Shown: piece by piece, positions 2,047 to 51,952 of the stretch
How positions within the stretch are numbered: position 1 is the first letter of the stretch
Layout of the letters: each line of letters opens with the position of its first letter
NCBI GenBank assembly: GCA_040954595.2
Contig: CM082592.2
Coordinates: 2,545,462-2,609,461, forward strand
Source of the DNA: Balanoglossus misakiensis
Lineage: Eukaryota; Animalia; Hemichordata
DNA: 64,000 nt
Direction of reading: 5' to 3'
The notes under the pieces: generated by a model
The model's database searches: none
Told to the model about the DNA's origin: nothing
Seen by the model: the letters and a program-made list of their open reading frames with translations, nothing else
Position numbers and translations under genes: made by a program

Positions 2047-3263
2047 AATTAAAATTAAAGCTGCAAGCAGCGTTGGGGGGGCACAAGCGGTTCCCATGGT
2101 GACCAGCAAATGCCACGGCTGTATCTGCTGGAGATACCAAGATATGGGAAAGTAGGTCAAAGGTCACCTGAGGTCACCCCAAATTTGGGCAAAAAAATTG
2201 GACCCCATACTAGTCTAGATACAACAAAAAACCAGACCCCTAGCCCTATTGGTTCACCTGCAATTAGGTATGCACATAATTAATGAGGTCTTGTGTAAGA
2301 CTCCATTATGTGCTCAATACCCATAAAAGCCAGGGCTCTAACTGCTTTGGATGCTGAGATATGGGAAAGTAGATCAAAGGTCACCCAAGGTCACCCAAAA
2401 TTAGGGCATCAAATTTTGACCCCAGAGTGGCCCATGTCCAACTAAAACCAGACCTCTAGCCCTATTGGTTAGCCTGGAATTAGATATGCAGAAAAATGAT
2501 GTTTCAGAAATAGGTCAAGGGTCATTGCCAAAATTACAAAAATATTTGTGTCATGTCCTGGCAGCATTGGTACCCATGTCCACAAAATTCATGACTGTGG
2601 TGCTTTGACAAGAGGAGGTATGGGGAATATGCATATATAATTAGTTGTTTTAAAACTGGGTCAAAGGTCATGTGAAAATTGCCCCGAAAAATTGTGACAA
2701 CTTCCGGTCATATGATGACTCATATCCAAAAAAAGAATTTCCGTGCTGTCAACATTTTGGCTACAAAACAGAATTTTCATTTTTCAATGGTTTTCCGAAA
2801 ATCCAACATGGCCGCCATAATGATCGACCAATCACAGTGCGCTTCGCAAAATTGATAGACATAGGTTAGGTGACCACATACCCCGAATCCCGTGACTCGG
2901 CAATCGCTGGTTCTGGAGAAGAAGATTTTTAAAGTTTTAAGTAGTTTTTCAGAAAAACAATTGTAGCAAAAAAACGGTATGTGTGACGTCATGATTTCAA
3001 TTGGGTAAAATGATGGACGGAAGGTAGGCTACCTGCACACCAAATTTGAACTCGATCGGCCCAGTAGTTTTTGAGAAGGACTCGTTTAACGATTTTCAGG
3101 AAATCCAATATGGCCGCCAGGTCACGTGACTAATTAAATATTCACGAGCCACTGCACGTCTACTCATTGGCCCCTATCACCCTACGAAGTTTCAGCCCCC
3201 TAGGTGCTGCGGTTTTCCAGATCTACCTGGCCGAATTTTGGGGAAGAAGAAGAAGAAGAATAA

Positions 3264-4415
3264 TTAAAGCTGCAAGCAGCATTGTCCGGGCCCAAGCTCT
3301 ATTATCTGATCTGATGCTGATATAGTGTTAAGTAGGTCAAAGGTCACCCGAGGTCACCCAACATTTGAGCAAAATATTTTGACCCCATACTGGTCCATTT
3401 ATAACAAAAACAAAACCTCTAGGTCTATTGGTTCATCTGTAATTAGGTATGTGCATATTTAATGAGGTCAGCAGAGGTCAAAGGGGTCATGAAAAGTAGC
3501 AAAATTTTTTGATCACATACAAATCCACATACATCAAAAACCAAAATGATAGCCTTAAAGGTTAGCCTAGAATTAGATATGCAGAAAAATGATGCGTCAA
3601 AAGTAGGTCAAAGGTCATTGCCAAAATTACCAAAATATTTATAGCTTATTCTTGGCATATGATGATTCATATCCATAAAAAGAATTTCTGTGCTATCAAT
3701 TTTTAGGCTAGAAAGGGAATTTTTTCTTTTTAATCGTTTTTCACAAAATCCAATATGGCCGCCATAATCTTCGACCAATCACATTCCCCTTCGCAAACTT
3801 GATAGACATCTGTTTAATGACCACACACACCAAATCTTGTGACTCGGTTATCGCCCGTTCTGGAGAAGAAGATTTTTGAAGTTTTACTATGGTTTTTCGA
3901 AAATCCAATATGGCCGCCATAATCTTCGACCAATCACAATGATCTTCGCAAACTTGATAGACATCAGTTAGGTGACCACATACCCCAAACGGCGTGACTC
4001 GGTTATCGCTGGTTCTGGAGAAGAAGATTTTTGAAATTTTGACCAGATTTCAGAAAAACAACTGTAGCAAAAAAACTGCAACATTGACAGCAAAATATCC
4101 AATTACAAAAATGATGGGCAGAGGGTATACTACCAGCACGCCAAATCTTAACTCGATCTGACTTGTAGTTTCTGAGATCTGAGATTTGCATTTTTTCAGA
4201 AAATCCAATATGGCCGCCAGGTCATGTGACTAATTAAAAATTCATGGGTTCAATGCACTACTACTCATTGACCTTGACCACTGTAGCAAGTTTGAGAACT
4301 GTACCTGCAGTGGTGTCTGAGATCTAGAGCGACAAAGAAGTGAACCAAGAATAAAGAAAGAAAAACCCCAACGAAACCAATACGGGCCCAAGCCTGGCTT
4401 GGCTTGGGCCCGTAA
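3264..4415. mobile_element. E2: intact, uninterrupted non-autonomous Helentron (~1.15 kb)
   Basis: TTAAAGCTGCAAGCAGC...CGGGCCCAAGC at the left; ...AAAGAAAGAAAAACCCCAACGAAACCAATACGGGCCCAAGCCTGGCTTGGCTTGGGCCCGTAA at the right. It shows what an empty target site looks like. Confidence 0.85.
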
Positions 4416-7400
4416 TTAAAGCTGCAAGCAGCATTGTCCGGGCCCAAGCTCTATTATCTGATCTGATTATTAGATATGCACATAATTAATGAGTAGAAAC
4501 ATAATGCTGTGTTTTATCCCATGAAATATCAAGGTTATATCTATGTTTGGTGTTGATATAGTGTTAAGTAGGTCAAAGGTCACCCAGAGGTCACCCACAA
4601 TTTGGGCAGAAAATTTTGACCCAAAGTGGTCCATGTCTAACAAAACCCAGACCTCTAGCCCTTTTGGTTAGTCCGGAATTAGGTATGCACATAAATAATG
4701 CATAAAGCAGGTGTCACAGGTGACCCAAAACTTTGGCTTTTCATTATGGCCCCCATACCTCCAAATGCCAAGGCTGTACCTGCTTTGGATGCCGATATAT
4801 GCAAAAGTAGGTCAAAGGTCATCCGAGGTCACCCAACATTTGGGCAAAAAAATTTGACCCAATACTGGTTCATGTCCAACAAAAACCAAACCTCTAGGTC
4901 TATTGGTTCATCTGTATTTAGGTATGCGCATATTTAATGAGGTCCGCAGAGGTCAAAGGGGTCATGAAAAGTAGCGAAATTTTTTGATCGCATACAAATC
5001 CACATACATCAAAAACCAAACTTATAGCCCTATTGGTTAGCCTGGAATTAGATATGCAGAAAAATGATGCGTCAAAAGTAGGTCAAAGGTCATTGCCAAA
5101 ATGACCAAAATATTTATAGCTTATTCTTGGCATATGATGATTCATATCCATAAAAAGAATTTCTGTGCTATCAAATTTTAGGCTAGAAAGGGAATTTTTA
5201 CTTTTTAATCGTTTTTCACAAAATCCAATATGGCCGCCATAATCTTCGACCAATCACATTTACCTTCCCAAACTTGATAGACATCTGTTTAATGACCACA
5301 CACACCAAATCTTGTGACTCAGTTATCGCCGGTTCTTGAGAAGAAGATTTTTGAAATTTTACTAGGGTTTTTCGAAAATCCAATATGGCCGCCAAAATCT
5401 TCGACCAATCACAATGATCTTCGCAAACTTGATAGACCTCAGTTTGGTGACCACATACCCCAAACCGCGTGACTCGGTTATCGCTGGTTCTGGAGAAGAA
5501 GATTTTTGAAATTTTTACCAGATTTCAGAAAAACAACTGTAGCAAAAAAACTGCAACATTGACAGCATAATTTCCAATTACAAAAATGTTTGCCAAAAGG
5601 TAGTCTACCTGCACGCCAAATTTGAAGTCGATCTGACTTGTAGTTTCTGAGATCTGAGATTTGCATTTTTTCAGAAAATCCAATATGGCCGCCATGTCAC
5701 GGTCAAAGGTCATTGCCAAAATTACCAAAATATTTGGGGTAGGTCCTGGCAGGGGTGATACCAATGTGCACAAAAATCAGAACTCTGGTACATTTAGAAC
5801 AGGTAGAATGAGCTATATATGCATCCCTATAGGTTAGCCTGGAAATAGATATGCAGAAATAATAATGTGTGAAAAGTAGGTCAAAGGTCAAGTGAAAAAT
5901 CGCCAAAAATTTGTAACATATTTTAGTCATATGATGATTGATATCCATAAAAATAATTTGCATGCTATCAATGTATAGACTAGAAAAAGGAATTTCAATT
6001 TTTCACTGCTTTTTACAAAATCCAATATGGCCGCCATATTTTTCGACCAATCACAATGCTCTTTGCAAACCTGATAGACATCAGTGTAATGACCATACTC
6101 CCCGAATCTTGCGACTCAGTTATCGCCAGTTCTGGAGAAGATTGTTGGAGTTTTACTATGGTTTTTCGAAAATCCAATATGGCCGCCATAATCTTCGACC
6201 AATCACAATGGTCTTGGCAAACTTAGTAAAAATTGTGGCAAAAAAACTGGAACATGGACAGCATAATGTCCAATTACAAAAATGATGGGCAGAAGGTAGA
6301 CTACAAACTATTATGATTACACACTAATCCACATGCATCATTACACATGCAGTAGTTGAGGGCGAAATACAAAGTTAGAATGGACACATTATGTGATTGG
6401 TTAATTAGTCACAAGTGATGTGTGGATTGGTTGTAAATAGTTGAAAATTTTCATCTGAATCAGTGAAAGTTTTGACAGAGGTATTTGTTTGGCTATAAAC
6501 ATATCTTTATTTAAGTGAACAGATCTGTATATTACATTCATTAACTGTGAAGAGGATGTAGTATAGATATACCAATATATTGAGCTGTATAAACGGAGTG
6601 TTAACCCAACACGTCTATGGGGTATGAATCTGAAAGCAACTTCATCCTACGCACTTGAATCCGAAAACGAATCTGACTCCAGCAGAGGCGTTGACCTGAA
6701 TCCGGTGAGTAACACGTATACAATTACATGCAGTTTTTAAATGTGGTACGAATGAGAGAATCGGTGGTTTGAACGTATAATACTTGGTGATGTTGGTTAT
6801 GAAGTTGTTGTTTAACCAATGGTAGTGTGATTTTGTTTGTTTGTGAGACGATGGCAGTTTTGTAAGATGTTTTGTATTTTCGTCTCGAGCGAATTCCAAT
6901 ATGGCGGCTATCGTAACGTGTCGAGATTGCTTACTGTATGTAAAGAATCCATGGTACCGTAAGCATGCATGTTTTGGCAAATGTTATATATGTTGAGATG
7001 GTGGAGTTTGCTGGATTAAATAGAACAATTAGAGGCTGAGTAAATCAGAGTTTCTAGTGCGTTCCATTCAAGTTGAAATTACGAGATAAGCTTCTTTTTG
7101 CAGTCAATGTACAAATGATTATTTAGACTGGAAAGGGTTTAGGCAAGCGAATCTCTTGAGCGGAAGTGTAGAATTCGGGCGATCGGTGTGTCATGCGTAT
7201 GTTACGTACAAGCGTTGGTAAAGTATTATTTCTGGGATGTGTATTTGTAAAAAAAAATAAACTGTGTTATATTTATGGATTGGCTTTTCCAAATACGTAA
7301 ATACTGCATTTATTTCTGTGAATATTGTATGTTTATGTGATCAAAAGCCCAGGGGTTATCATTGTAATTTTTATCAGTTAAATCGATTTGTTTTTTGATA

Positions 7401-7883
7401 ATTGAAAGGAATTTTGCTTCAAATATTGAACAATCTGTGTGAGTACAAAACAGAAACATTGCTGGATTATTTGTTGTTTTAGTTGTTTGTAAAAATGTGG
7501 GGACAAGCGGAGAATTGGCCAAATATTTTTGGTGACCACTGTCTTTAGTGTGTATGCTTTCTGGTGGTGACAGGTGTGCCAAAACATAGACAATGGAATC
7601 TGGCAGGAGCATGAAAAGAACAGTTGACTTGTAAACATATTTTGATGCCATGAAACTATGTTGTGGGCAAGACAAGTTATGTTATCAATCTGTGGTAACC
7701 TGTATGTGCCATTTGCATGGAAACTGTGATCAAGATATGAATTTCTGAATATCACAAGCTTGGCAGTGAATTCATTGTTAATTGTTATCCTGTTTGTAGG
7801 CAATTGTATATTTTCATGTACTAGTTTAAATATACATTTAAAGTTAATTAGTTATTAATTATTATTTATTATTTTCTTGACAG

Positions 7884-7909
7884 ATTTTGGCTACCAAAGA
7901 GTTTTCAAG
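7884..7909 (+). other. Putative 26-nt 5' UTR micro-exon of the Helentron gene (copy 2: 32958-32983)
   Basis: Pyrimidine/AT tract-ttgacAG|...tcaag|GTGAGT. The next strong acceptor, tttgttccAG, directly precedes ATG 10327. Confidence 0.55.
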
Positions 7910-7964
7910 GTGAGTGTTGGTGCACAACAGTGCATAGTATCATAGATTAACACACTCAGGTGTG

Positions 7965-10050
7965 CATTCAGGGTCAGGTCTGAAGCCTTATTTGGTTGTA
8001 CACGGTGGATGTTGGGGTGTCCGTGTATTTGTTTATGTGTGTGCAAATTCATACATGTATGCCTATTGTACTTGGACTTGATATTGCTAACTGGTAGAAA
8101 TGGTTTTGAAGTGAAATTTTATTCACATTTGTCTGAGTACATTGCAACGTAAATGGGAAAATGTCGGGTCATTCAGGGTCAGGTCTGAAGCCTTATTTGG
8201 TTGTACACGGTGGATGTTGGGGTGTCCGTGTATTTGTTTATGTCTGTGCAATTTCATACATGTATGCCTATCGTACTTGGACTTGATATTGCTAACTGGT
8301 GGAAATGGTTTTGAAGTGAAATTTTATTCAGATTTGGCTAAGTACATTGCAACGTAAATGGGAAAATGTTTGGTCATTCAGGGTCAGGTCTGAAGCCTTA
8401 TTTGGTTGTACACGGTGGATGTTGGGGTGTCCGTGTATTTGTTTATGTGTGTGCAAATTCATACATGTATGCCTATCGTACTTGGACTTGATATTGCTAA
8501 CTGGTGGAAATGGTTTTGAAGTGAAATTTTATTCAGATTTGGCTAAGTACATTGCAACGTAAATGGGAAAATGTCGGGTCATTCAGGGTCAGGTCTGAAG
8601 CCTTATTTGGTTGTACACGGTGGATGTTGGGGTGTCCGTGTATTTGTTTATGTGTGTGCAAATTCATACATGTATGCCTATCGCACTTGGACTTGATATT
8701 GCTAACTGGTGGAAATGGTTTTGAAGTGAAATTTTATTCAGATTTGGCTGAGTACATTGCAACGTAAATGGGAAAATGTTGGGTCATTCAGGGTCAGGTC
8801 TGAAGCCTTATTTGGTTGTACACGGTGGATGTTGGGGTGTCCGTGTATTTGTTTATGTGTGTGCAAATTCATACATGTATGCCTATCGCACTTGGACTTG
8901 ATATTGCTAACTGGTGGAAATGATTTTGAAGTGAAATTTTATTCAGATTTGGCGGAGTACATTGCAACGTAAATGGGAAAATGTCGGGTCATTCAGGGTC
9001 AGGTCTGAAGCCTTATTTGGTTGTACACGGTGGATGTTGGGGTGTCCGTGTATTTGTGTATGTCTGTGCAAATTCATACATGTATGCCTATCGCACTTGG
9101 ACTTGATATTGCTAACTGGTGGAAATGATTTTGAAGTGAAATTTTATTCAGATTTGGCTGAGTACATTGCAACGTAAATGGGAAAATGTCGGGTCATTCA
9201 GGGTCAGGTCTGAAGCCTTATTTGGTTGTACACGGTGGATGTTGGGGTGTCCGTGTATTTGTGTATGTCTGTGCAAATTCATACATGTATGCCTATCGCA
9301 CTTGGACTTGATATTGCTAACTGGTGGAAATGATTTTGAAGTGAAATTTTATTCAGATTTGGCTGAGTACATTGCAACGTAAATGGGAAAATGTCGGGTC
9401 ATTCAGGGTCAGGTCTGAAGCCTTATTTGGTTGTACACTGTGGATGTTGGGGTGTCCGTGTATTTGTTTATGTGTGTGCAAATTCATACATGTATGCCTA
9501 TCGCACTTGGACTTGATATTGCTAACTGGTGGAAATGATTTTGAAGTGAAATTTTATTCAGATTTGGCTGAGTACATTGCAACGTAAATGGGAAAATGTT
9601 TGGTCATTCAGGGTCAGGTCTGAAGCCTTATTTGGTTGTACACGGTGGATGTTGGGGTGTCCGTGTATTTGTTTATGTGTGTGCAAATTCATACATGTAT
9701 GCCTATCGCACTTGGACTTGATATTGCTAACTGGTGGAAATGATTTTGAAGTGAAATTTTATTCAGATTTGGCTGAGTACATTGCAACGTAAATGGGAAA
9801 ATGTTTGGTCATTCAGGGTCAGGTCTGAAGCCTTATTTGGTTGTACACGGTGGATGTTGGGGTGTCCGTGTATTTGTTTATGTCTGTGCAAATTCATACA
9901 TGTATGCCTATCGTACTTGGACTTGATATTGCTAACTGGTGGAAATGATTTTTAAAGAAAATTTCACTCAGATCTGAGATTTGTCTGAGCACATTCTAAT
10001 GTGAATGCCAGAATGTTAGGTCATACAGGGGTCAGGATTTAAGCCTTATC
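7965..10050. repeat. 205-bp tandem repeat, ~10 copies, in the putative 5' intron of the Helentron gene
   Basis: CATTCAGGGTCAGGTCTGAAGCC recurs every 205 bp with few substitutions. Confidence 0.97.
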
Positions 10051-10326
10051 CTGTTTTCCAGCAGAAAAAAAGTGTGTCTGTGATACTTTGTGTGTATATG
10101 TGTCTATTTGTATACAAGCATGGGGATATGTGTGTATTATGTGTTGCTGTTGAATTACAACTTTGTTCGGACTTAGTTTCTATAAATCACTTCTGTCTGT
10201 TAAAAGTTCTACTACTTTTTACTGGTTATAATCACTAGTGATGTGATTTGATGAGAAGGTTATCTGAAGTCTGGTGGTGAAAGGATAGTAAAAACCTAAC
10301 TAGACAGTATATTTGCTTTGTTCCAG

Positions 10327-11047
10327 ATGCCACGCAGTAGATACTGGAGGAAGAAGAGGAGTCAGAAGAATGAAGATGCTGTTGTGTCTGAGGATCCTGT
10401 CCTCTTGAAAAACAGGATAGCTATAGAGCACAAAGAGGGGCCTGCCCTCTCTAAAAACAGGAATAGAAATGAATTCAAAGAGGGGCCTGCCCTCTCTAAA
10501 AACAGGAATAGAAATGAATTCAAAGAGGGGCCTGCCCTCTCTAAAAACAGGAATAGAAATGAATACAAAGAGGGGCCTGCCCTCTCTAAAAACAGGAATA
10601 GAAATGAATTCAAAGAGGGGCCTGCCCTCTCTAAAAACAGGAATAGAAATGAATACAAAGAGGGGCCTGCCCTCTCTAAAAACAGGAATAGAAATGAATT
10701 CAAAGAGGGGCCTGCCCTCTCTAAAAACAGGAATAGAAATGAATTCAAAGAGGGGCCTGCCCTCTCTAAAAACAGGAATATGGATAAAATCAGAAAAAGT
10801 GACATAGAAAATGAAAGTACAAAAGTCAACAATGAGATATTTGAGACTGAAAATCAAAGTGTTGATAAGACTGAAGGAAGTAATGAAATTCTGCTACAAC
10901 ATAGTCTTGACTATGATTCATCGGACGACCTATATATTGGTAGTGGAACAGAGGACAGTGTTTATTCATTCTCTCCACTTACTTCTGATGTATGTGAACA
11001 GCTGTGTTGCAAATTTGATATTGTAGATAAAAATAAAATTGATGTTT
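10327..11047 (+). CDS. N-terminal part of the Helentron protein, copy 1 (basic N-terminus plus 15-aa repeats), cut by a TIR insertion
   Basis: ATG follows a splice acceptor. It joins in frame to 11901 once the insertion and one TGTTT are removed. Confidence 0.8.
10432..10780 (+). repeat. 45-bp coding minisatellite, 8 units (KEGPALSKNRNRNEF/Y); copy 2 at 35506-35854
   Basis: Direct reading. Confidence 0.97.
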
Positions 11048-11895
11048 CAGGGTTCTCCACGCTTTGAAAATTAAGAGGGGCGGATAATTTACATAATATT
11101 AGCATATCATTTGCATAAAATTAACATAATGTTTCTTTGTATTTGTGGAATGCACCAGACAACGAAATCTCGATGTCCCAAAATATTTTGCTCTAACTTC
11201 ACAGAATTTCAAACAAAAGTCAAAGGAGTGACATTTTAAGATACAAAGGTATAAATATAAGTATGTAGACACACTGTCGAAAACACGGTCGCGCGCGTTC
11301 GACTGACCGCGACCGTGTGCGTACATCGCGTCCACAGCTCAATGCAGTTGGCTGGGTCCCCGATCGCGCGCGCGACCACCCGCTCTCGACATCGGCTCCA
11401 AAGTCGTTGTCACGGTCGGGATTACTAATGGCCTTGATCGGTATAAAATTGTAGTCAATGAAACCCCCAAAAATCGTAATCATTGTTGAAGTCGCTGTCA
11501 TGAAAATGTCCAGTGAAAAATTTGCCGTCTTCCGGGTTTACAAAGTGAAGGAAGGACGCATACTGTCAAAGGTCACGTAATTAGGTCATGTCGATAACAC
11601 CATCGTTTTTCTCTGGGCCGGTACTTTGAAATTGATCCGAATGTGTGAAACGGTTTCCATTTGCCATGCTAAGTGTTACTATGGTGCATGACAAAGTGTG
11701 AATGACCATTTTGTTCACGTCCACCCCCAAAAGACACTAGTAACACTATAAACCACAACGCGCGAGCTTTGTTTTCTACCGGGTAAAACAAAGGGGCGGT
11801 GTTGTCAAATGCAGGGGCGGCACATACGACAGAGGGGCGGCCGCAAAAAACAGAGGGGCGGGCCGCCCCTCAAAACCCCCCCGTGGAGAACCCTG
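11048..11895. mobile_element. 848-bp non-autonomous TIR transposon (hAT-like CAGGG ends, 5-bp TSD TGTTT)
   Basis: Perfect 14-bp TIR CAGGGTTCTCCACG / CGTGGAGAACCCTG; TGTTT at 11043-11047 and 11896-11900; subterminal GGGGCGG repeats. Confidence 0.93.
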
Positions 11896-11900
11896 TGTTT

Positions 11901-36974: not shown

Positions 36975-39900
36975 TAAATAAACTTGGAAGTGTTACAATT
37001 GGAGACCCATGTAATTACAAGTCAATAATTGGTGATGGTAACTGTTATTTTAGGTCCTTGTCATATTGTATAAGTGGGACTGAGCGAAATCACGGAGTAA
37101 TTCGAATGGCTATTGTGAATCACTTGAAAGCCAATGAGGAAGTATATTCAGGCTGGGTAAGGTTAGATGGATATACATCAGTTGCTGATTATATTGAGAA
37201 GTCCAGAATGGATCGTCTTGGAACATGGGCTACAGAAACTGAAATCCTTGCCACTACTAATCTCTTCAATGTGAATATTTTCGTGTACAGTTTCGATAGT
37301 TGGTGGAAACATTCTTGTAATATAATCAATAAAAATAATGTTGATAGAGGTGTAGGTATATATCTGAACCATCGTAATAGAAACCATTATGAAGTAGTTG
37401 AGTGTGTGAAGACACCACAGTTGGAAACTTGTCACTGTACACACATTGATTGCAATGTAGTTTTCCCTATTGAAAATGTGACTGGAGAATGCATGGATGT
37501 GACAGATGAGTGTTCAAAACAGACTGGTTTGCGAAAAGAGTGTGATTTGGATGACGTATTTCCTACTCATGAAGAATTACAGTGTCTTGCACTACAAAGA
37601 GGTAAGAAACGCAGAACAGCCATGAGTGTACGGCTAAGAAAGAAAGTCAGACGCGAAAGGTATGAAATTGAAACAACCAAAGTGAATAATTTGAATGTGT
37701 CCAATAGTGTGAAAAGCAGTAAAGCAGTTAAACAATATGAACGTTATCAGACAAATAGTGAATATAGAGACAATATAAAATTGGATAATAGAAAGAGGTA
37801 TCATGAAAATGTAATGTATAGAGAAAACAAGAAATGTAAACTTACAGGAAGATACGCAGATGATCAAGTTTTTCGTGAAGCTCAGAAAATTGTCTGTGCA
37901 CAACAGTGTGTGGCAAAATATACAAATAACCAACTATACAGAGAACACAAGAAGAGTCAGAGTGCGGCACATTTTCTTGACAAGTATAAAACAGATCAGA
38001 AGTTTCAAAGACAAAAGCAAAAACAATGTTTGGAGAGGTACCAACAGGTTCAAGAGTATAAAGAGTCTGCATTGAAGAGGAGTCGTAGAGAGAGGAAAGT
38101 GGCTAAGATTGAAAAGCAAAATATAGAGCATATTATAATTGATTTCAGGAATCAGACTTCAGTTGGCCCAAATTGTGTATGTTCAGTTTGTCATCGGAGA
38201 CTTTTTAGAAAACAAGTAATTGTTTGTAAGATGCATAACTATATCTCTAAGGGAGGTCTCTGTGAAATGAATGCCAACAAGTGCATAACAGAAGATTATG
38301 TACATAACTGTAGTGAATTATGTATTGTTGATTGTCCACTTAAGACCAGTGCAGCTAGTAAATTATGGATTTGTCACACATGCCATAGCAAACTGTTGCG
38401 TGCAGAGATGCCTGTTCAAGCGGCTGCAAACAATCTTGATGTAAAACCAATCCCTAATGAATTAAAATGTCTGAATTCTTTAGAGCAACATTTAATTGCA
38501 CTGCATATTCCTTTCATGAAAATGATGGCTCTGCCAAAAGGTGGTCAGAATGGTGTTCATGGACCTGTTGTATGTGTCCCATCTAATATAGAAAAAGCCA
38601 CAAGTATTTTGCCTAGAGGTGAATTGGATGACCAGATGATAAAGGTGAAATTAAAGCGGCAATTAAGTTACAAAGGTTGTTATCAGTATCAATTTGTAAA
38701 CAAAGGGCACATACAGAATGCACTGGAATACCTAAAGAAAAACAACAAGTGGTATAATGATGTAAAATTTAATCCCACTTGGAAAAATACTCTTGAAAAG
38801 ACTGAAGAAAAAACTGACGGTGAAGGTAATGAAAACAATGAGGAAAACACTTCAGATACTGAAGGCAATGATGTAACATCGGATACAGAAGATGGAAATG
38901 AGCCTGATACAGATACTAATGGAATATTCATGGACACATGCTTTCAACCGGTTGACATAGGTCAAGATATTCTTGATTATCACTTTCAGGATATAGCTTG
39001 TGTTGCTCCTGCAGAGGGTAATGCACCTATTAGTGTGTTGATGGAGAATTTCAATGAAGCTAAGTGCTTTCCAGTCTTATTCCCAAATGGGTCACCGACA
39101 TTTCATGATGACAGAGAGGTAAAGATAACAATAGGACGATACCTGCAAAGTCGCCTGATGAATGCAAGTAACAGGTTTGCAAAAAGCACAGACTACATAT
39201 TTTATGCACAATATCGTTCAGAACTTGACCAGGTTGTATCAAATGTGTCAATTGCTTTGAGAAAAGGAACTGCCAATGCTTGTGGGAAAAAGGTGACATC
39301 TGAAGTTCTGACTAATACAGATTCTTTGAAAGAGATATTGAAGTGTGATGAAGGCTACAAGTTTTTAAAACCAGTACGAGGGACTCCTCCTTATTGGCAG
39401 GCCACACAGAAAGATTTATTTGCAATGATCAGGCAGTTAGGTATACCAACATGGTTCTGCTCATTTTCTGCTGCCGACTTACGGTGGAAAGAAGTAATTG
39501 AGACTATCCTACGTGAAGAAGGTGATGTACGTAATGCTGAGGATCTTGATTGGTCTGAGAAATGTGGTATCTTGAGACGAAACCCTGTGACTGCAGCAAG
39601 AATGTTTGATCATAGATTTCATTGTTTTTTGACTGATGTAATTATGTCACCAGCTAGTCCTATTGGGAAGATCAAAGATTATTTTTATCGAGTTGAGTTT
39701 CAACAACGTGGCTCACCACACACTCACTGTTTGTTTTGGGTTGAAAATGCCCCAAAAGTGGACAAAGATTCTGATGAAGATGTTGTTGAGTTTGTTGACA
39801 GATATGTAACATGCGAAATGCCTTCTATTGAAGAGGATGAGGTACTGCATGAGATTGTGAAAACAGTCCAGAAACACAGCTCAAGGCATTCAAAATCTTG

Positions 39901-42900
39901 CAAGAAAAAGGGTACTACATGTCGATTCAACTTCCCTCGACCTCCTTCAAACAAAACCTTTGTATGCCACCCTTCTGTCAGTATAGATACCGGTACAGAG
40001 ATGGCAGATGATGAGGAGTGTAGAGGTGCTCAGGTCACAACATCAATGGAAAATGAATTAGAAATTGATTTGCCTCAGTTAGATGATACAGCATTGGGTG
40101 AGAAAAGGGCTAGACAAATTTTAGAACGAGTGTGGACATGCCTGTGTGAGAAAGAGAAACAAATTGATACTATTGATGATTTGTTTAATGCAGTTGGCAT
40201 AACTCAGGAAATGTTTGAACAAGCAAATGCAACTTTGGCCAAGAAGACAAGTGTAGTTCTAAAACGTGAACCAAGTGATGTTTGGGTGAACCAATATAAT
40301 GCCAATCTTCTCCGTTGCTGGAATGCAAATATGGACATTCAGTTTGTTGTGGATGCTTATGCCTGTGTTGTGTACATTGTGTCATACATCTCTAAGGCAG
40401 AAAGAGAAATGGGTTTACTCTTGGAACATGCACAGAAAGAGGCTTACAAAGAAGGAAATATGGATGCAAAGTCTGCCATGAAAGAATTAGGCAGTGTATA
40501 CTTGCACAACAGGGAAGTGAGTGCACAGGAAGCTATATATAGGGTATGTGGTTTGAAACTGAAACAATCATCACGAAAAGTTCAGTTTATTCCCACAGGA
40601 GAAAATCAAATCAAAATGAGTTTGCCATTGACTGTAATACAGAAGAAAATGAAAGGTGGTGATCTAGATGAGGAAGAGATATGGATGAATAGCATTGTAG
40701 ACAGGTACAAGAACAGACCAAATGGGGAAGATTTCGACAACATGTGTCTTGCCACATTTTGTTCTGAATATAGAGTGGTTTCGAAATCAGAAATGAAATA
40801 TGTGAATAATGAAAATCGTTGCAGTCCAATAGTGAAGTTGAAAAATGATGTCGGTTACATGCAGAAAAGATCTAGAAGTGATGGGGCTGTCATTAGATAT
40901 GCACGATTTTCTGTTACCAAATATCCAGAGAAGCACTATTGCAGTATATTACAACTTTTTCTCCCATACCGAACTGAATCACAACTGAAACCTAGTGGAT
41001 TTGAGTCGTATGAGGATTTTTATTGTCTTGGTGCAGTGAAATGTGGCTCTGCTTCTTTAGAAAAGGTTAAAGTGATCGTAGATGCCAATAAAGCATTATT
41101 TGAAACAGAGGCTGAGGCTATTGATGCAGCTGAACAAATTCTTGAAGAGAATGGACCTCTTGAAGATGCATGGGCTCAAATATGTCCAGAAAGTGAATTA
41201 GAACGATCAGAATGCATTGAAGAAGGTAAAAGATGCTGTGATGATGATCCCGTAGATGACGATGACATTCCAGATTTGGTTCAGAAATCCAAAGGTGATG
41301 ATTGCCATGTAGAAGTTTCAAGTTCTTCAGTAAAGAAAGCTGAGGTTGAAGCAATGTGTAGATCTTTGAACAAGAAACAAGCAGAAGTGTTTTACACTGT
41401 CAGGAAGTGGTGTTTGGACAAAAGCAATGGCAAGAATCCAGAATCCTTTTATCTGTTTGTCACTGGTGGTGCTGGTACTGGGAAAAGTCACTTAATCAAA
41501 GCCATATATCATGAAGCCAAACGAATTCTAGCTCGGGCAATGCCAGATGTTGATGGAATTTCCATTGTTTTAACTGCACCAACCGGAGTCGCAGCATTTA
41601 ATATACAAGGAACAACTCTCCATCATATATTCTCCATTGCAGTTGACTCAAAGTTGCCATATCAGCCACTGAATGAAGAAAAGCTCAATACCCTACGTTG
41701 CAAATTTGGTAACCTTCAAATTTTGATAATAGATGAGATTTCCATGGTAGACAAGAAGTTATTGTACTATGTTCATGGAAGACTACGACAAATCAAACAA
41801 TCATCAGCTGAGTCACCATTTGGGAATGTGTGTGTTATTGCTGTGGGTGACTTTTACCAACTTCCACCTGTGAAAGCAAGTCCACTCTGCATAGACCGTG
41901 AATCCATCAATCTGTGGAATGATAATTTCAGTATTGTAGAACTAACTGAAATAATGAGACAGAAAGACTGTGCATTTGCAGAGGCACTAAATCGAGTAAG
42001 AGTTCACAAGAAAGGGGACACACTGAATACTGGTGATGTAGCAATGTTTCAGAGGTGTGTTACTGGTGAAAAACCTGAGGCAATACATTTGTTTGCTACG
42101 AATGCAGAGGTTAATAGCTGTAATATTGAAATGCTCCATTCACTATGTTCTGATCCTGTGTGCATTGAAGCAGAGGATTTAAGCAGGAATCCAAAAACTG
42201 GAAGACTAGAAAAAAAGGAAGGACATCACATCAAAGTGTATAGGACAACTTTGCCAAAGACTCTTACTCTAGCTGTTGGTGCACGAGTCCAATTGACGCA
42301 TAACATTGATGTGGCTGATGGTTTGGTGAATGGCGTATTTGGCACAGTATGTCACATTGCAGAGAAACCAAGTGAAAAGTTTCCAGCTGCCATTTATGTT
42401 GTATTTGACAATTTGAAAGTTGGCCAAGGATTGAGGAACAAGAGCCCTGTAATTATATCTGACCTTCCAGAAAACATCACTCGTATAGAACCCCAGGAAA
42501 TGTCTGTTGCAAGTAATGGTGGTATTAGGAGGCAGTTTCCTTTGAAACTAGCTTGGGCATGTACAGTTCACAAAGTACAGGGTTTAACCGTTGAAAAAGC
42601 TGTTGTCAGTTTAAAGAAGATGTTTGCACCAGGACAGGCATATGTGGCATTGAGTCGGGTGACATCATTAGATGGTCTCATTATTAATGACTTCAATACA
42701 TCATCCATATATTGCAATGAAAAGGTTCAAGAAGCCTTGGAAAGAATGCCAAAGTTTCTCTGCAAGTGTACTCAGACAGAACAGAGTAAATATACATGCT
42801 CATTTTTATTGCATAATGTTGAGGGCCTTGTAAATCACATTAAAGATATTTGCAATGACAGTGAATACTTGGAAGCAGACTTCATTTGTTTGACGGAGAC

Positions 42901-43447
42901 ATGGTTATCTGAAAAAGAAGCATGGTGTGATGTACAATTGAGCGGGTTTGAATTCAATCACCAACCTCGATCTCAATCCTACAATCAATTTGATACAAAT
43001 ACCTCAAGTTTACAGTTGCAACAGCGGGGTGGTGTTGGAGTCTATAGCAAAATTGGCAAGAATTTTGAAATTTTGCATTTGGCTGTGTGTAATTTGGAAT
43101 GTATTTCATTTTATGTTACAAATATCAATGTTACAATAGCTATAGTTTACAGACCTCCATCATACAAAGCAGAGGTATTCAAAAATAGCATGGTTTCTTT
43201 GGTGAAAGCAATGGACAAATACCCAGGAGGCAAACTGATCATGGGTGATTTCAATCAAGATATCTTGACTCGGTCATCACTTGTAAAGTTCATGGAAGAT
43301 CATGGTTTCAGACAATCTGTAAGCGAACCAACTACAGAAGCTAATACACTGATTGATCATGTGTATGTGAAAGGAATAAAAAATGTCACAGTAAATATTG
43401 TACCAAAATACTTCAGCTTTCATGAAGCAATAAGCATCAAAATATAG
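36975..43447 (+). CDS. Helentron OTU-Rep-Pif1 helicase-APE protein, copy 2 (main part)
   Basis: Same motifs as copy 1; one visible substitution, KRK to KRQ (A13586 vs C38660). Confidence 0.96.
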
Positions 43448-44101
43448 TAATTTACACTTGTATTTGAAATAAAATAAGTAAATAGAAAAAAAAAGAAAAA
43501 AAAAACATGACAAGGAAAAACCTCATTCAGGTACATGCTTCAAAAATGGCCTTTGTAAACAAAAAGATTGGTGACAGATGGTTCCAGACCTTGTTGCTTC
43601 GCCAAGGCAAATCATGTGCCTCTGGTGGTAGGACATGACCGGGCAAGTATCCTGTGCTGGCGGAGCGACTCTTGCTAGTTGCTATACTCCTTGCCTAATC
43701 ATACTGCCAGTAGTGCACTAGGCTGCATAGCGATGAGGTCTGGGAGCAAAACTACTCAGCAATATTAGTGAATGTACTTATAGTGGCTCCTAGGATAAAT
43801 CAATTATGTTCAATTCAAATAGTTTATTGTCAACAACAAATGTAAAAAATGTCTTCAGGCTCACTAATCAATTCCAATATGATGACAACCACATCTGTAT
43901 GCAGCTAAGGATAAACCTGAGAAAGGATGAAACTGAGGGTGAAAGAAAACAGAAAATAGGAGAACTGTTTACAGGGTTAAAATATATTATAACAGAAAAT
44001 ACAATTAATGAATTTTGTAAAGGTGCTACAGATACTAAAATGTTCAAAAATAAATCATCAATCAGTTAATATGAAAATAGACTAATAAATAAATATACTG
44101 A

Positions 44102-44172
<71 letters not shown>

Positions 44173-44177
44173 ACAAA

Positions 44178-44232
<55 letters not shown>

Positions 44233-44885
44233 ATGTTCTAGTTTATAGTTTCAATTTTTTGATGGAATTACAGAAAACAGGTCATGACGTTTTTGATCTG
44301 ATGTCAAGTGGCAAAATTCCCCATAATACAGTACCAGCGTAGGGTATTGCAAATTTACATATGGATGTATTGACAGTTGGAACAAAAAGATTTCCTTGAT
44401 TTTTATGTCATGTACTGTATTGGTGAGACGCTAATGAACAATAGCTAGTGAAACAGAGAGGTAAATTGTCATTGACCACAGGTCATATAAAAAGGTACAG
44501 AATTGAAGTTTGTGTGGTTTGAAGATGTCAAGAATATTCAAATGTTTAAAACAGCCAAGTGTGCTGTGAAGTCGCGAAAGATTACTGCCATTTTTGAGCG
44601 AGGAGTTCAATGCTGTTAAGGTGAAAAGGATATGTGGATATCCAGACTTCAAGGCCGATTAGGTGATGTGATGTAGTATAAATGTGTTTAATATAGAGAA
44701 GAATTAAAATATATTTTGGTACAAATTTGAAATGATTTAACTTTCAGAAGAAGATAAACTCAGGCGAAGGATTGAGTAATTTAAGACAGGCTGCCTGGCT
44801 GTCATAATGTTTTATCTGTCTGTATGTCTGTGTCATGTATGCACTTGCATATGTACATTTGTAACATATGTACATGTGTATATGC

Positions 44886-44923
<38 letters not shown>

Positions 44924-44925
44924 AC

Positions 44926-44958
<33 letters not shown>

Positions 44959-47900
44959 TGTATGTATGTATGTATGTATGTATGTATGTACCGGCATGTA
45001 TGTACGTGCATGTGTACCAGTATGATATGGAGGCATTTTCAATGAATATACAACATTATTCTTAAATATGTATTTTACGGCAGTAATCCATTTCATGGAA
45101 AGTGTTATCGTTTGGAAGCTCCAGAGGATGTAATTACAATGTTAAATATTCCAGTAACATCATGGGATAATCATCTTTGTGTGCAGACTCAATATTGAGT
45201 ATATATACATAATTTCTCTGCCTTCAATTCTGTGTGGTATAGTGTATTTATTGCATTTTGTCACAAGATATGTCAGATGCTGTATTTTGAACATCTTATT
45301 GTATACTGTAATACTGGATAATTATTAATTGTAGTAAAGATATTTGCTTTTATTATGACAGTAAAAGTAATGTTTGAAATTGTACTTTTAATTATGGAAA
45401 AAGTTTACTGGTGTTTGGTATACCTTGTAAATAACCGAATTTGACTCAAGCTAGTTATTTTACAACAGTAATTGAAATGTTTAAATTGTCATTGTTATTA
45501 TCAAACATGGTTCAGTCAATTTAATAACTATTTATTTGGAAACAATGTGGCTTGAAATGTTTGAAATTGTATTCTTTTTCTCAAATGAAATACTGTCTGT
45601 TGGAGATTTTATGTTTTTAAAGTTTGTGTCAACATGACATACATGAAATTTTCATTTTCATTACAACATTAAGTAACATCTTTGAAATTATCAGATTTAT
45701 TATTAAACATGGTTGTGTTCATTGATTATTTAAAGGTAATTAATTATTTAGAATCAGTGTTGTTACATTTTGTTAGAAAAGTAATTGAAATCTTTACAAT
45801 TATTTTTTGTTATCAAAAAAAAAGATTGTGTGTGTTGGAAATTTTACAATTATAAACATTTTGGTCAGCATAGTTGCCTTTATTTGAGCATTTACTGAAT
45901 GGTTTGACATTCTAAAGTTTATCATCACACATCATTCTGTCTGTTGAATATTTTATGACAGTTAAAAGTCAAGTCGCTTGGATTAGAACATTAATTCTAA
46001 TATAGATTGATGTTGGAAATTGTAAATTTTATCATCAAATGTAGTGTGAAGAATAGAAGATTGTATTATAAAAGTAAAAATATGGTACATTGACTTGGAG
46101 AAACAGGGGTTAATAATTAATTTCTTCGAATGGTATTTTTTGAGCTGTTGGCACAGAAGCTGTATGGCATTTCAGTGTAGATAGCACATGTGAATATACA
46201 GCACGGAAACCAATGCATTTTAATACAAGTGAACTGTAGATGTGAATTTGGTCGAAGGGAAAAAGGAAATAGAACACTGTCACAAGATAGTGGGTCTGAG
46301 AGTTTGTCTCATTATTAAAGTGTCACACATATACATAGCAACAATGTGTGCTTTTGAGCAAGCTCCATAATTACCCAGAAACATTATTAGGAATGCCATG
46401 CTGTTAATGAACAGTAGTCTGTTGCATGACGGATATAATAGACAGATAATGTTTCAATCTGTATGGAAAGGGTTTTCATATCCTATGGAGTAATCGGCAT
46501 AAATAGAAAAATTTGTAATATTTACAAACAGAAATATCTGTATTTAATATATATGTGTTAATTATTTAACTTAGTTCATATCACTACCATGTGTGGATTA
46601 AGCTATTGGTGTTCATTGAACCCTGCAGAAGTCAACAAGGAACATTGTATTGTAAAAGATTAGCCTGTGCCTAGCTTGCTTTAAACAGTGACACATCTAC
46701 AAATTGTTCATTTCATACATAGATATATGCTTTTAAGAGACAAACTCTTATTCAGCAATTGTTAAGAGTTTTGTTTAATATTAAAAACTGTTTCTGTTGT
46801 TTTAATAGTTGAAACATGCTGAAATATTGGTGAACTGTACTCAATCTGGACTATGCACATACGGTACACATACATGTACAAGATAGAACATTCACTGATT
46901 CAGTAAAATAATTTATGATGTCCATCCCGTTTTTGACTGTTGGTTAAACTTCGATCCATGTATTTGACTGTATAGCCATAGTTGCAAACTTTTAGACCAC
47001 ATCAAGCTTAGAATGAGATCATAGAGTATGAATTACTCTAGCTGTCATGTAAAGTACCATGGCAATGTTATGTATCCAAGAGAAACAATTTAGTTTATTT
47101 AATCTGAATGTGACACATAGAATCAGCACTTTTTATACAGCAAAGGGGTAATTTCTGACCCCGTTTTTTGTTTATGCACTGAAGTTATATTGCACAGTGA
47201 AAAACGTTATGCAAGTATTCCCTGTATTCTTGAATGATATCACAAAAAGGGCCAAAAACTGCATTTTGAAATTCTAGTAAGCTTTTGCCAGGGTCAGATT
47301 TCCACACTTAATAAGTGTTATATTAGATATGTCCTCTTAATATATATGTTTTTAAGTATTTGATATGTCAACATGCACTGAAAGGAATACTGGATATTCA
47401 AATGATTAAGATAGATGGTAACTTAACTACACCAATTCTCTTGGTGGAAGAATTATATATTGTCTGTTACTACATTTGGCCATAGTCATTAGATTAAAGC
47501 CAGCTTGGTTTGCTTCAATATAAAACTACTAGGTAACAGATGAATTATAAATGGCAAAGTGTGCATCATCACATAATAGCCAAAAACTGTGCCTAAGATA
47601 CTGTAGAGCATGTGATTTATATGAGGATTTTAGAGTAAGACACAGCTTATTAATGTTCAAGCTTGTAAGATAAGGATTCTGCAAAAGCAGAACAGTTAGG
47701 TCATTTAAGAAGTTCTATGGTAGATAAATGATGTTGTTTCCAAAAATGCCATCTGTTACTCAAATGATGAGTGACAGCATTCCTGGATTTAACTTGCATC
47801 AGTAATTTGGTAGTTAAGTCAAATTTTACTACAATTTGTCACTTGTGGTCAGTCTTGATGGGTGTAACATGCTAGGAGGGTACACTTACCCATTCCGGAC

Positions 47901-50235
47901 ACCTGGTACAAGAGCTTAGCAGTGGTTTAAAATGATCCTGTGAGATTGTCATTTTTCTATTATTTATTATTTGAACCTGGTAATTAGCTTACCTTGAATG
48001 ATATTGATTATTCGACCTGATTTGATGTCTTATTCTTGCAATAACAAACAAAACCTCTACTGTTGTCAACCTTTTATTTATTTAAGATAAACCTGTCAGT
48101 TGAATCATTGCTTGTTTGAAAGCAGCCCTTACTGTAGTTATCACTTTATTTTAATGTACATTATAGGTCTCTGACCACTGAAAACATAACTTCTATGTCT
48201 GATTTTCTTATCTATCTTTACTCTGTACAATATATCTGGTTTGGCTGATATATCACCCAATGGCCATACAAACTTTTGTCATTTAATTTTGTCACATACT
48301 AGTACATATCCAAAACACAAAACATCTATGGCCCTCTTATTATTAGGCATACAATTTGCTTAAGTATAAAACCCGTAAAGTGTTTCAACACACCAAATAC
48401 AAATACTTTATCTCCTCTGAAAGTCGAGATATGGAAAAGTAAGACAAGGTCACCCCAGGGACAAGGCTGAACCTACTATGGATTCTGATATATACGAAAG
48501 TAAATCAAAGGTCACCTAAGGCCACACCGATATTTGGACAAAATAGTTTGACCCCATATTATGTCTATGTCGAACAAAAACCAGACCTGTAGCCGTGTTG
48601 GTAAACCTATAATTATGTATGCACATAATTAATGAGTTAAGCAGGTGTCAGATGACCCCAAAACTTTGGCTTTTCATAATGGCCCCATACCTCCAAACGC
48701 CAAGGTTGTACCTGCTTTGGATGCCGAGATATGCAAAAGTAGGTCAAAGGTCATCTGAGGTCACCCAAAATTGGGGCAGAAAATTTTGACCCATAGTGGT
48801 CCATGTCCAACAAAAACCAGACCTCTAGCCCTTTTGGTTAGCCCGGAATTAGGTATGCACATAAATAATGAGTTAAGAAGGTATCACAGCTGACCCAAAA
48901 CTTTGGCTTTTCATTATGGCCCCATACCTCCAAACGCCAAGGTTGTACCTGCTTTGGATGCCGAGATATGCAAAAGTAGGTCAAAGGTCATCTGAGGTCA
49001 CCCAAAATTTGGGCAGAAAATTTTGACCCATAGTGGTCCATGTCCAACAAAAACCAGACCTCTAGCCCTTTTGGTTAGCCCGGAATTAGGTATGCACATA
49101 AATAATGAGTTAAGCAGGTGTCACAGGTGACAAAAAACTTTGGCTTTTCATTATGGCCCCATACCTCCAAACGCCAAGGCTGTATCTGCTGTGGATGTCG
49201 AGATATGCAAAAGTAGGTCAAAGGTCACCCGAGGTCACCCAACATTTGGGCAAAATATTTTGACACCATAAAGGTCCATGTATAAAAAAAACAAAACCTC
49301 TAGGTCTATTGGTTCATCTGTAATTAGGTATGTGCATATTTAATGAGGTCAGCAGAGGTCAAAGGGGTCACGAAAAGTAGCAAAATTATTTGATCACATA
49401 CAAATCCACATACATCAAAAACCAAACTTACAGCCCTATTGGTTAGCCTGGAATTAGATATGCAGAAAAAACGATGTGTCAAAAGTAGGTCAAAGGTCAT
49501 TGCCAAAATTACCAAAATATTTGGGGTAGGTCCTGGCAGGAGTGATACCAATGTGCACAAAAATCAGAACTCTGGTACATTTAGAACAGGTAGTATGAGC
49601 TATATATGCATATATGCAGGTTCTTAAAAAAGTAGGTCAAAGGTCATGTGAAAATTGCCAAAAAATTTGCAACATATTCTAGTCATATGACGACTCATAT
49701 CCACAAAAAGAATTTGTATGCTATCTATTTTTCGACTAGAAAAATGATTTCTTAATTTTCGCTGGTTTTTACAAAATCCAATATGGCCGCCATAATCTTT
49801 GACCAATCACAACGCTCTTCGCAAACTTGATAGACATCAGTTAGGTGATGTCATACCCTAAATCCCATGACTCGGTTATTGCCGGTTCTGGAGAAGAAGA
49901 TTTTTGAAGATTTTACTGTACTTTTTCGAAAATCCAATATGGCGGCCAAGGTCACGTGACCGCTCAGGATTTTATTGTCAATTTTTGAAGGGCAGAGGAC
50001 ATGTGTACCATACACCAAATTTGAACTTGATTGGCCCTGTGGTTTTTGAGAAGAAGCCATTTAAACATTTTCAGAAAATCCAATATGGCCGCCAGGTCAC
50101 GTGACTAATTAAATATTCACAAGCCACTGCACATCTACTCATTGACCTTGACCACTGTAGCAAGTTTGAGAAGTGTACCTGTAGCCGTTTCAGAGATCTA
50201 GGAGAGCAAAGATTGACATAAGAATAAAGAAAGAA

Positions 50236-51729
50236 TTAAAGCTGCAAGCAGCATTGTCCGGGCCCAAGCTCTATTATCTGATCTGATTATTAGATATGCA
50301 CATAATTAATGAGTAGAAATATAATGCTGTGTTTTATCCCATGAAACATCTATGTTTGGTGTTGACATAGTGTTAAGTAGGTCAAAGGTCACCCAGAGGT
50401 CACCCACAATTTGGGCAGAAAATTTTGACCCATAGTGGTCCATGTCCAACAAAAACCAGACCTCTAGCCCTTTTGATTAGCCCAGAATTAGGTATGCACA
50501 TAAATAATGAGTAAAGCAGGTGTCACAGGTGACCGAAAACTTTGGCTTTTCATTATGGCCCCATACCTCCATACGCCAAGGCTGTATCTGCTGTGGATGT
50601 CGAGATATGCAAAAGTAGGTCAAAGGTCACCCGAGGTCACCCAATATTTGGGCAAAATATTTTGACCCCATACTGGTCCATGTATAACAAAAACAAAACC
50701 TCTAGGTCTATTGGTTCATCATTAATTACGTATGCGCATATTTAATGAGGTCACCAGAGGTCAAAGGGGTCATGAAAAGTAGCAAAATTTTTTGATCACA
50801 TACAAATCCACATACATCAAAAACCAAACTTATAGCCCTATTGGTTAGCCTGGAATTAGATATGCAGAAAAATGATTCGTCAAAAGTAGGTCAAAGGTCA
50901 TTGCCAAAATTACCAAAATATTTATAGCTTATTCTTGTCATATGATGATTCATATCCATAAAAAGAATTTCTGTGCTATCAATTTTTAGGCTAGAAAGGG
51001 AATTTTTACTTTTTAATCGTTTTTCACAAAATCCAATATGGCCGCCATAATCTTCGACCAATCACATTCTTCTTCGCAAACTTGATAGACCTCTGTTCAA
51101 TGACCACACACACCAAATCTTGTGACTCAGTTATCGCCGGTTCTTGAGAAGAAGATTTTTGAAGTTTTACTAGGGTTTTTCGAAAATCCAATATGGCCGC
51201 CATAATCTTCGACCAATCACAATGATCTTCGCAAACTTGATAGACATCAGTTAGGTGACCACATACCCCAAACCCCGTGTCTCGGTTATCACCGGTTCTG
51301 GAGAAGAAGATTTTTGAAATTTAAGCCAGATTTTAGAAAAAAAATTGTAGCAAAAAAACTGCAACATTGTCAGCATAATTTCCAATTACAAAAATGATGG
51401 GCAGGAGGTAGTCTACCAGCATGCCAAATTTGAAGTTGATCTGACTTGTAGTTTCTGAGATCTGAGATTTGCATTTTTTTAGAAAATCCAAGATGGCCGC
51501 CAGGTCACGTGACTAATTAAAAATTCACAGGTTCAATGCACGACTACTCATTGACCTTGACCATTGTAGCAAGTTTCAGAAGTGTACCTGCAGCGGTGTC
51601 TGAGATCTAGAGCGACAAAGAATTGACACAAGAATAAAGAAAGAAAGAAAGAAAGAAGAAAGAAGGAAAGACAGAAAAACCCCAACGAAACCAATAGGGC
51701 CCAAGCGCTGGTATGCGCTTGGGCCCTAA
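50236..51729. mobile_element. E8: non-autonomous Helentron nested in the right end of E7
   Basis: Left end like E3/E7; right hairpin AGGGCCCAAGCGCTGGTATGCGCTTGGGCCCTAA; a different element from E4 at the equivalent site. Confidence 0.82.
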
Positions 51730-51952
51730 AAATTCCAACGAAACCAATACGGGCCCAAGCCTGGCTTGGCTTGGGCCCGTAAAAACCCCAACGAAACCAA
51801 TAGGGCCCAAGCGCAAGCAAGCGCTTGGGCCCTAAAAAACCCCAACGAAACCAATAGGGCCCAAGCGCAAGCAAGCGCTTGGGCCCTAAAGAAGAAATAT
51901 TCCAACAATAACAATGGGGGCACAAGCCGCCTGAGGGCGCTTGTGCCCCCAA
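51693..51952. repeat. Stack of five terminal palindromes (right ends of E8, E7, E6, E5, E1)
   Basis: Five ~53-63-bp units of the form A-rich linker-CAAT-GGGC(C/A)CAAGC-loop-GCTTG(G/T)GCCC-AA. Confidence 0.9.

Follow-up and report, generated by a model that had tools for sequence, protein, structure and literature searches.

An intact five-deep Helentron nest in the hemichordate Balanoglossus misakiensis, and a candidate target within the elements' own right ends

How do eight related transposons come to lie one inside another at a single locus, and what guides each newcomer to its place? The question is raised by a stretch of 64,000 nucleotides of Balanoglossus misakiensis (contig CM082592.2 of assembly GCA_040954595.2, positions 2,545,462 to 2,609,461; hereafter, 'the window' means this whole stretch). 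Positions 2055-51952 are occupied by elements E1 to E8 of one Helentron family: two near-identical autonomous copies that encode a RepHel protein (E3 and E7, 'the twins') and six short non-autonomous ones. An earlier note on this DNA had read the locus as a recursive nest whose members home to a fixed pad inside the family's own terminus. Here, we confirm that the eight-element nest exists, and examine where its members landed and why.

A left-end motif scan (up to three mismatches, both strands, the whole 64 kb) recovered all of the ends listed in the earlier note: eight left ends, every one on the + strand, and eight right hairpins, at the starts and ends of the elements in Table 1. Along the DNA they run L L R L L R R L L L L R R R R R, which bears out the proposed bracket structure E1(E2 E3(E4) E5(E6(E7(E8)))), five levels deep. 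A both-strand scan of the 14 kb of the window outside 2055-51952 found no family ends or body fragments. On the + strand, all eight junctions fall between two As (A^A, where ^ marks the junction), which reads T^T on the - strand, and guests are oriented like their hosts in 7/7 cases. With guests excised as TTAAAG...TAA, hosts E3, E5, E6 and E7 regain the five-A layout seen in the never-interrupted E2, E4 and E8, the two parts of the GAA tract of E1 are joined across 48.6 kb, as had been noted, and the right-most 280 bases of all elements align seamlessly. The empty layout returns without any duplication, in agreement with the reported lack of a clear target-site duplication, although the A-runs leave an ambiguity of 1-2 nt. 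The restored empty layouts support nesting built by insertion, and the nest was likely assembled by seven successive insertions.

The pairing of particular ends within the nest is less uniformly secure. Left and right ends can be compared through the match between the left subterminal inverted repeat (subTIR) and the hairpin arm, and by this plain score the last-in, first-out order is joint best, tied with 12/120 orders of the five-tail stack; across all eight elements, 2640/40320 orders do as well. With so many ties we rejected this score as strong evidence for the last-in, first-out order. Three criteria picked after inspection of the data (only the GGGCAC tail may be assigned to E1, the E7 tail equals the E3 tail, and E5 and E6 share a hairpin) leave that order among 2/120. 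The independent support from sequence variants claimed for the pairing is therefore weaker than stated. The pairing of E4 and of E8 is certain because each is contiguous, yet neither fits its own hairpin best: the left end of E4 matches the hairpin of E2, E3 and E7 at 14/15 positions and its own at only 10/15, and E8 combines a left end of E7 type with a hairpin of E5 type. The left end of E4 thus fits the hairpin of another subfamily, and E2 (3264-4415) and E8 (50236-51729) have bodies 94% alike but differ in hairpin type, which suggests that tails may have been swapped among subfamilies.

Could the structure have arisen with no nested insertion, by rolling-circle end bypass, by unequal recombination of tails or by mis-assembly across the 20.8-kb twins? 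End bypass yields tandem arrays (PMC4067079), the stacked tails are scored as a tandem repeat of 54 bp, the ends of E4 and E8 are mismatched, and the twins exceed many long reads in length, the assembly being judged here from sequence alone. Against this stand the balance of end counts, 8 to 8, the exact empty pads given back by excision of the guests, and the tails that follow E8, which match E7, E6/E5 and E1 in turn across both twins (2/120 orders). The tail match makes a mis-join at either twin improbable, and we regard the whole account as very unlikely. Crossover of a circle into a resident was rejected as a route, as it yields abutting copies and would not place a left end within a pad.

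Each of the five hosts that received a guest was entered 53-63 bp from its own right end, so the A-rich tract near the long-hairpin end is indeed a preferred position, as had been noted. We refer to the zone 35-100 bp from the right end, which was defined after the fact, as the pad. The joint chance that all five cuts fall within it is 2.7e-8 if any AA^W step may be used, 1.9e-3 if six purines must precede AA^W, and 1.3e-5, a value driven by the twins, under an empirical A-rich profile. The profile was built from 48 non-duplicate sites of solitary relatives (two duplicate sites were dropped); it is in-sample, derives from other organisms and covers one flank only. It describes a one-sided, A-rich and G-poor flank of 13-20 nt, in which A makes up 33-77% of each position from -20 to -3; in 41/48 sites the cut is preceded by AA. 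A simpler target rule, an A-run of five or more, fails for the pad of E1 and was discarded.

How much of the nesting follows from this preference? The pad takes 55% of the profile weight in E5, 41% in E6, 16% in E1 and 1.9% in each twin, and 6-98% in the hosts of eight relatives. Much of the nesting in short hosts is thus explained by sequence preference, and the claim that pad choice is independent of such preference is not supported, given the 41-55% that the profile alone assigns to the pad in E5 and E6. It is conceivable that preference with feedback accounts for everything: one-sided A-rich tracts would draw insertions, A-rich junctions would be retained and a promoter-side hotspot would stay open, with no recognition of resident ends. 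The A-rich flanks of solitary relatives, with AA before most cuts, fit such an account, as does the standing of the pad as the best region of short hosts; HINEs favour T-rich targets (PMC4067079, PMC7492417), and Helraiser favours AT-rich DNA within about 20 bp (PMC4778049). However, a pad in the window is equivalent under the profile to just 0.04-0.4 kb of ordinary DNA, yet 7/7 later arrivals went to pads or junctions and none to the roughly 40 kb of twin interior or the 14 kb of flank. Furthermore, the twins were struck at one base, E4 in E3 and E8 in E7 being different guests at the identical nucleotide position, and this in an interval in which the 20.8-kb copies gathered only two substitutions, while richer tracts were left empty: no guest used the (AATA)n tract of either twin or the A-tract after the open reading frame (ORF). 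Sequence preference does not explain these same-base hits beside empty (AATA)n tracts, nor seven arrivals at one locus, and we consider it unlikely to be the whole explanation. Targeting in the window exceeds both a plain TT rule and the A-rich profile. Local hopping, another candidate, would not focus on one base, and was not found for Helraiser in the accessible text of PMC4778049.

Related elements show how general the behaviour is. A scan of metagenome contigs with the left-end motif returned 74 rows at 72 loci, from which L019, L020, L032, L063, L067, L068, L070 and L088 were excluded by eye as chance matches, leaving 66 left ends at 64 loci in what is presumably host-animal DNA. Sorted by BLAST and by eye, four lie in a pad in the same orientation, one lies inverted at the pad position, 11 adjoin a right hairpin, 50 lie in non-element DNA and none continues an element body elsewhere; for one of the 50 (L076) a diverged body-like match stops 150 bp before the junction. 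The junction types of the window thus recur in other organisms (16/66), but strict homing is not supported, since the remaining 50/66 lie in ordinary A-rich DNA, as does E1: homing is a bias rather than a rule. Guests and hosts share an orientation in 15/16 of the near-end cases. Filled and empty pads occur within one family (L036 versus L062 and L054, 97% alike; L085 and L055 versus L033), and stacked tails recur in L021 and L052. At 880-2600 of L062, the element body is broken by what appears by eye to be a hAT-type transposase copy. In viral contigs, all 17/17 matches to a 16-nt motif were without a subTIR and were rejected as chance, and a scan of these contigs found no RepHel; a scan of prokaryote genomes gave five matches in bacterial records.

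A possible basis for the bias lies in the layout of the ends. The core GGGC(C/A)CAAGC occurs 16 times on the + strand, once in each left subTIR and once in the inner arm of each hairpin, so that the core of the left subTIR recurs, in unchanged direction, in the inner arm, and the element's A-rich microsatellite lies upstream of this second copy. Each of the eight true left termini precedes its core by 23-24 nt, and the five pad cuts precede the core in the inner arm by 20, 21, 21, 21 and 28 nt; the 3/16 cores with no upstream junction belong to the empty pads of E2, E4 and E8. Among the relatives, the distance from terminus to core is 24 nt in 65/66 ends, 26 and 24 nt in the stacked tails and 20 nt in the inverted case. 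Where the relatives' hairpins are imperfect, the inner arm retains the TC of the left subTIR, in the same direction, in 14/18, whereas the complement of the outer arm reads GA in 17/18. As the pad cuts are spaced much like the true termini, the pad looks like a cryptic left terminus.

From this geometry, spacing and enrichment we infer a model in which binding, nicking, the order of events, the initiating end and the role of the endonuclease are all conjectural. RepHel, an HUH nuclease, would bind its own subterminal motif in a resident element, reading the core directionally, and would cut at an A^A step, upstream by roughly two helical turns. Having nicked the resident at a true or a cryptic terminus, it would swap strands with the incoming donor; use of the true terminus would give head-to-tail abutting copies, and use of the cryptic terminus would give nesting. 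Each newcomer would supply two further sites, and so the nest would grow, while the choice of a wrong stacked end as start or stop could leave double tails and tail swaps such as those of E4 and E8. That a resident subterminal motif directs joining in this way, at a cryptic or true terminus, seems to us about equally likely to prove right or wrong. More tentatively, and with our expectation leaning somewhat the other way, the family may belong to a widespread animal Helentron clade with a built-in decoy terminus and relaxase-like, motif-directed integration into earlier copies. Mirror-image nicking at the foot of the hairpin was rejected: inverted guests would then lie at a distance of 1-2 nt from that arm's inner partner, the inner arm, and none was seen.

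Position might instead follow exposure, if newcomers enter single-stranded DNA beside an extruded hairpin or are captured by a co-transposing copy or circle. The strong terminal hairpins, for which the last 100 nt of the right ends have predicted folding energies of about -17 to -22 kcal/mol (DNA parameters), adjoin nearly unstructured pyrimidine-rich strands; HUH nucleases are restricted to cutting single strands, and circular forms of Helitrons are known (PMC4778049). The two autonomous copies are very young and were struck quickly, and the inverted guest of L040 suits a looser rule. By itself, however, such capture leaves unexplained both the equality of the pad distance and the terminus-to-subTIR distance and the same-direction conservation of TC in relatives, and we think it rather improbable.

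Several points tell against joining directed by a resident motif. Under the A-rich profile, the downstream edge of the A-tract is favoured in any case, so the spacing 'ruler' is not independent of sequence preference: pad spacings of 20-28 nt compare with 23-24 nt at termini, and A-rich preference alone predicts a similar position. Since the pad already takes 41-55% of the weight in E5 and E6 and 6-98% in the relatives' hosts, the excess rests mainly on the twins and on abutting copies, and for the latter the sequence E5, then E3, then E2 is assumed. In L040 the guest at the pad position is inverted, and 50/66 related ends, together with E1, required no resident motif. Counted by hand, the near-end share is only 3/43 in the largest contig series (2/10, 3/4, 5/5, 2/3 and 1/1 in the others), and the 16 near-end cases are not independent, as four share one possibly collapsed junction and L073 and L081 are 97% alike. 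Repeated junctions are favoured by low-coverage assemblies, and abutting junctions are identical to circle junctions and could stem from concatemers in short-read assemblies. Finally, L080 (- strand, about 2400-3010) is a lone right tail fused to a bacterial-like gene, and is likely a chimeric metagenome contig.

The proteins and ends of the elements uphold their identification as Helentrons (the autonomous copies) and HINEs (the short ones), by domains, FYR and GSP signatures, end structure and T^T junctions. E3 and E7 differ by two substitutions and three microsatellite indels over 20.8 kb, and this near-identity implies recent movement. In RepHel, PF14214, PF05970 and PF03372 (Rep, PIF1 helicase and C-terminal endonuclease) exceed their curated cut-offs, and OTU (PF02338) scores 25.8 bits versus a cut-off of 23.3. 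Rep motif 2, FYRVEFQQRGSPHTH at residue 956, carries S between G and P, preceded by FYR, the Helentron signature being GSP (PMC4067079); S stands there in 116/121 proteins compared, the pattern being unmatched in the other five. The best matches of RepHel are proteins of the same architecture from Saccoglossus, Haliotis, hagfish and bony fish, at 54-67% (44% in one case). The terminal endonuclease motif reads SFH (window 18341-18352, RepHel residues 2200-2203), and because this is atypical the activity of the endonuclease is uncertain. At the same position, 70 pattern-matched relatives have D in 32, Y in 16, C in 10 and F in 6, and the domain may be weak or dispensable.

All eight elements have subTIRs, an inverted repeat at one end and, at the other, a short stem-loop. 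Read on the - strand, the ends are DINE-1/HINE-like, with a subTIR inside a long hairpin followed by a microsatellite at one end, and a subTIR, a short stem-loop and Ts at the opposite end. Read in the direction of the ORF, the elements begin with T and finish with hairpin-CTAA (for example, at 51727-51729; some with GTAA or CCAA), a layout that resembles HLE1. The six short elements share modules of the twins' ends, 71-95% alike. Both autonomous ends (4416-6300 and 23360-25133; in the twin, 29490-31370 and 48462-50235) are made of the same 155-bp and 237-bp modules, and the left part resembles a near-complete non-autonomous copy cut about 130 bp short of the pad; the autonomous element is possibly an older composite.

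Table 1. Elements of the nest, their internal features and the adjoining host gene (window positions)
Feature	Position	Strand	Description
E1	2055..51952	+	Outermost HINE (non-autonomous), 1272 bp after excision of guests; body at 2055-3263, tail at 51890-51952; GGGCAC subTIR type; insertion site is the A-run following a (GAT)n tract
E2	3264..4415	+	Non-autonomous, 1152 bp, uninterrupted, pad empty; within pad of E1, adjoining E3
E3	4416..26630	+	Autonomous Helentron, 20771 bp once E4 is excised; tail at 26578-26630
E4	25134..26577	+	Non-autonomous, 1444 bp, uninterrupted; guest within pad of E3; left subTIR mismatched to own GGGCAC hairpin
E5	26631..51889	+	Non-autonomous, 1482 bp without guests; tail 51836-51889; adjoins E3
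E6	28059..51835	+	Non-autonomous, 1484 bp once guests are excised, with 95% identity to E5; within pad of E5; tail 51783-51835
E7	29490..51782	+	Autonomous twin of E3, 20799 bp without E8; within pad of E6; tail 51730-51782
E8	50236..51729	+	Non-autonomous, 1494 bp, innermost, uninterrupted, pad empty
Five-tail stack (E8, E7, E6, E5, E1)	51677..51952	+	Each tail a G-poor spacer and terminal hairpin
E3 RepHel frame	11744..18373	+	2209 aa stop to stop; OTU, DUF6570, Helitron_like_N, PIF1 helicase, EEP endonuclease
E7 RepHel frame	36818..43447	+	2209 aa; single residue change versus E3 (K615Q)
E3 upstream frame with 45-bp repeat	10300..11067	+	Twin at 35374-36141; no Pfam match; probable 5' exon of RepHel gene
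E3 internal tandem array	7965..9973		205 bp x 9.8; twin at 33039-35047
E3 (AATA)n tract	19010..19144	+	62 AA^W sites; twin at 44084-44234 has 70; internal control
RNFT2-like E3 ligase, 5' coding stretch	52435..52752	+	Host gene outside the nest, 482 bp away

Is such self-insertion without precedent, as the earlier note tentatively suggested? It is not: self-insertion near one terminus has been published for Fusarium Helitron2 (PMC5148889, PMC13342296). In that family the first 31-85 nt are found repeated, and self-insertion followed by chimeric transposition was proposed (PMC5148889); in one strain, 8/15 of the longer copies have two or three 5' termini, and a single copy from another strain has five (PMC13342296). 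The Fusarium 5' end bears a hairpin with an inverted repeat, like the right end here (PMC5148889), and stacked hairpin-bearing termini are common to FoHeli1 and FoHeli2 and to the window (five at 51677-51952, two at 26.5 kb). The differences are equally clear. The Fusarium nest was inferred from unbalanced products with many 5' ends and one 3' end (PMC5148889, PMC13342296), whereas in the window the balanced precursor is intact, five deep, mixed from autonomous and non-autonomous subfamilies and in an animal host. The element of the window also carries an EEP endonuclease, whereas Helitron2 is defined by having no endonuclease domain. Neither a fixed pad nor a spacing rule is named in the accessible text of the two Fusarium papers. 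Thus, self-insertion near one end was already known, and what is new is the intact five-deep animal nest, its recurrence in relatives and the spacing rule.

HLE2 Helentrons have T-rich targets and form tandem arrays and adjacent insertions, and for Helentrons, HINEs and DINE-1 the accessible parts of the same paper describe clustering and adjacent insertion but no fixed internal target or recursive nest (PMC4067079); by its convention, an ORF running toward the long hairpin, as here, is the minority orientation. Helraiser shows an AT-rich preference, circles and no local hopping in the available account (PMC4778049). The Helitrons of Paramecium telomeres also use a strand-asymmetric repeat target in a fixed orientation, but they form a separate clade and their target is the host telomere repeat, outside the element (PMC13085455). 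The HUH nuclease-helicases TrwC, at oriT, and adeno-associated virus (AAV) Rep, at AAVS1, integrate at targets that hold their own binding and nicking sites (PMC6049929); there this was shown biochemically, whereas the window offers geometry alone, a target that is a second motif within the element, and a family most of whose copies lie elsewhere. No fixed-pad nest is described in the accessible text of PMC11417382, PMC7492417, PMC13085455, PMC12001565 or PMC3630058. Our literature search found neither a balanced multi-level Helentron nest nor a cryptic-terminus rule, although subscription papers, Repbase notes and some supplements could hold one. Beyond Helitrons, self-inserting retroelements such as DIRS-1, Zepp and Alu, the last entering Alu A-tails, supply targets to their own kind and form nests, by reverse-transcriptase or recombinase chemistry and with no rolling circle.

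The intact nest is the intermediate predicted by the Fusarium self-insertion model, and it yields a specific rule, namely that the cut falls roughly 20-28 nt upstream of the subTIR core of a resident copy, in a family whose RepHel is apparently intact and recently active. If the rule holds, it would account for stacked ends, head-to-tail copies and the swapping of ends between subfamilies, would show how a stretch of about 1 kb next to a gene can grow to 51 kb with no further hits on host DNA, and would mean that annotation programs that pair ends mis-pair such copies; it would also point to a landing-pad integrase. Should the pad be a decoy terminus, RepHel would be a HUH transposase of eukaryotes whose portable target spans about 60 bp; such a reading would explain, across HLE2, why termini are stacked, copies lie in tandem and ends are swapped, and would reveal which end RepHel reads.

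Lastly, the nest borders a host gene. The only matches of its RNFT2-like coding stretch are in two acorn worms, Ptychodera flava (75%) and Glandiceps talaboti (61%), as fits an enteropneust host. The suggestion that the nest is a harmless safe harbour overstates the case: the ORFs of the host elements are intact, but host tails are severed from their bodies and the sequence upstream of the RNFT2-like gene, once about 1.1 kb, is now 51 kb. On the - strand at 1368-1442, an ATG at 1442 opens 25 codons followed by a GT donor, facing away from the RNFT2-like gene. This is a probable first coding exon of a gene to the left and, if it is real, the nest would lie within a divergent promoter region of 1.1 kb. 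On the far side, at 61977-63453, three short tandem repeats of 12 bp (TCGGAT/CCGAAT type) in mixed orientation are perhaps the ends of another small transposon family.

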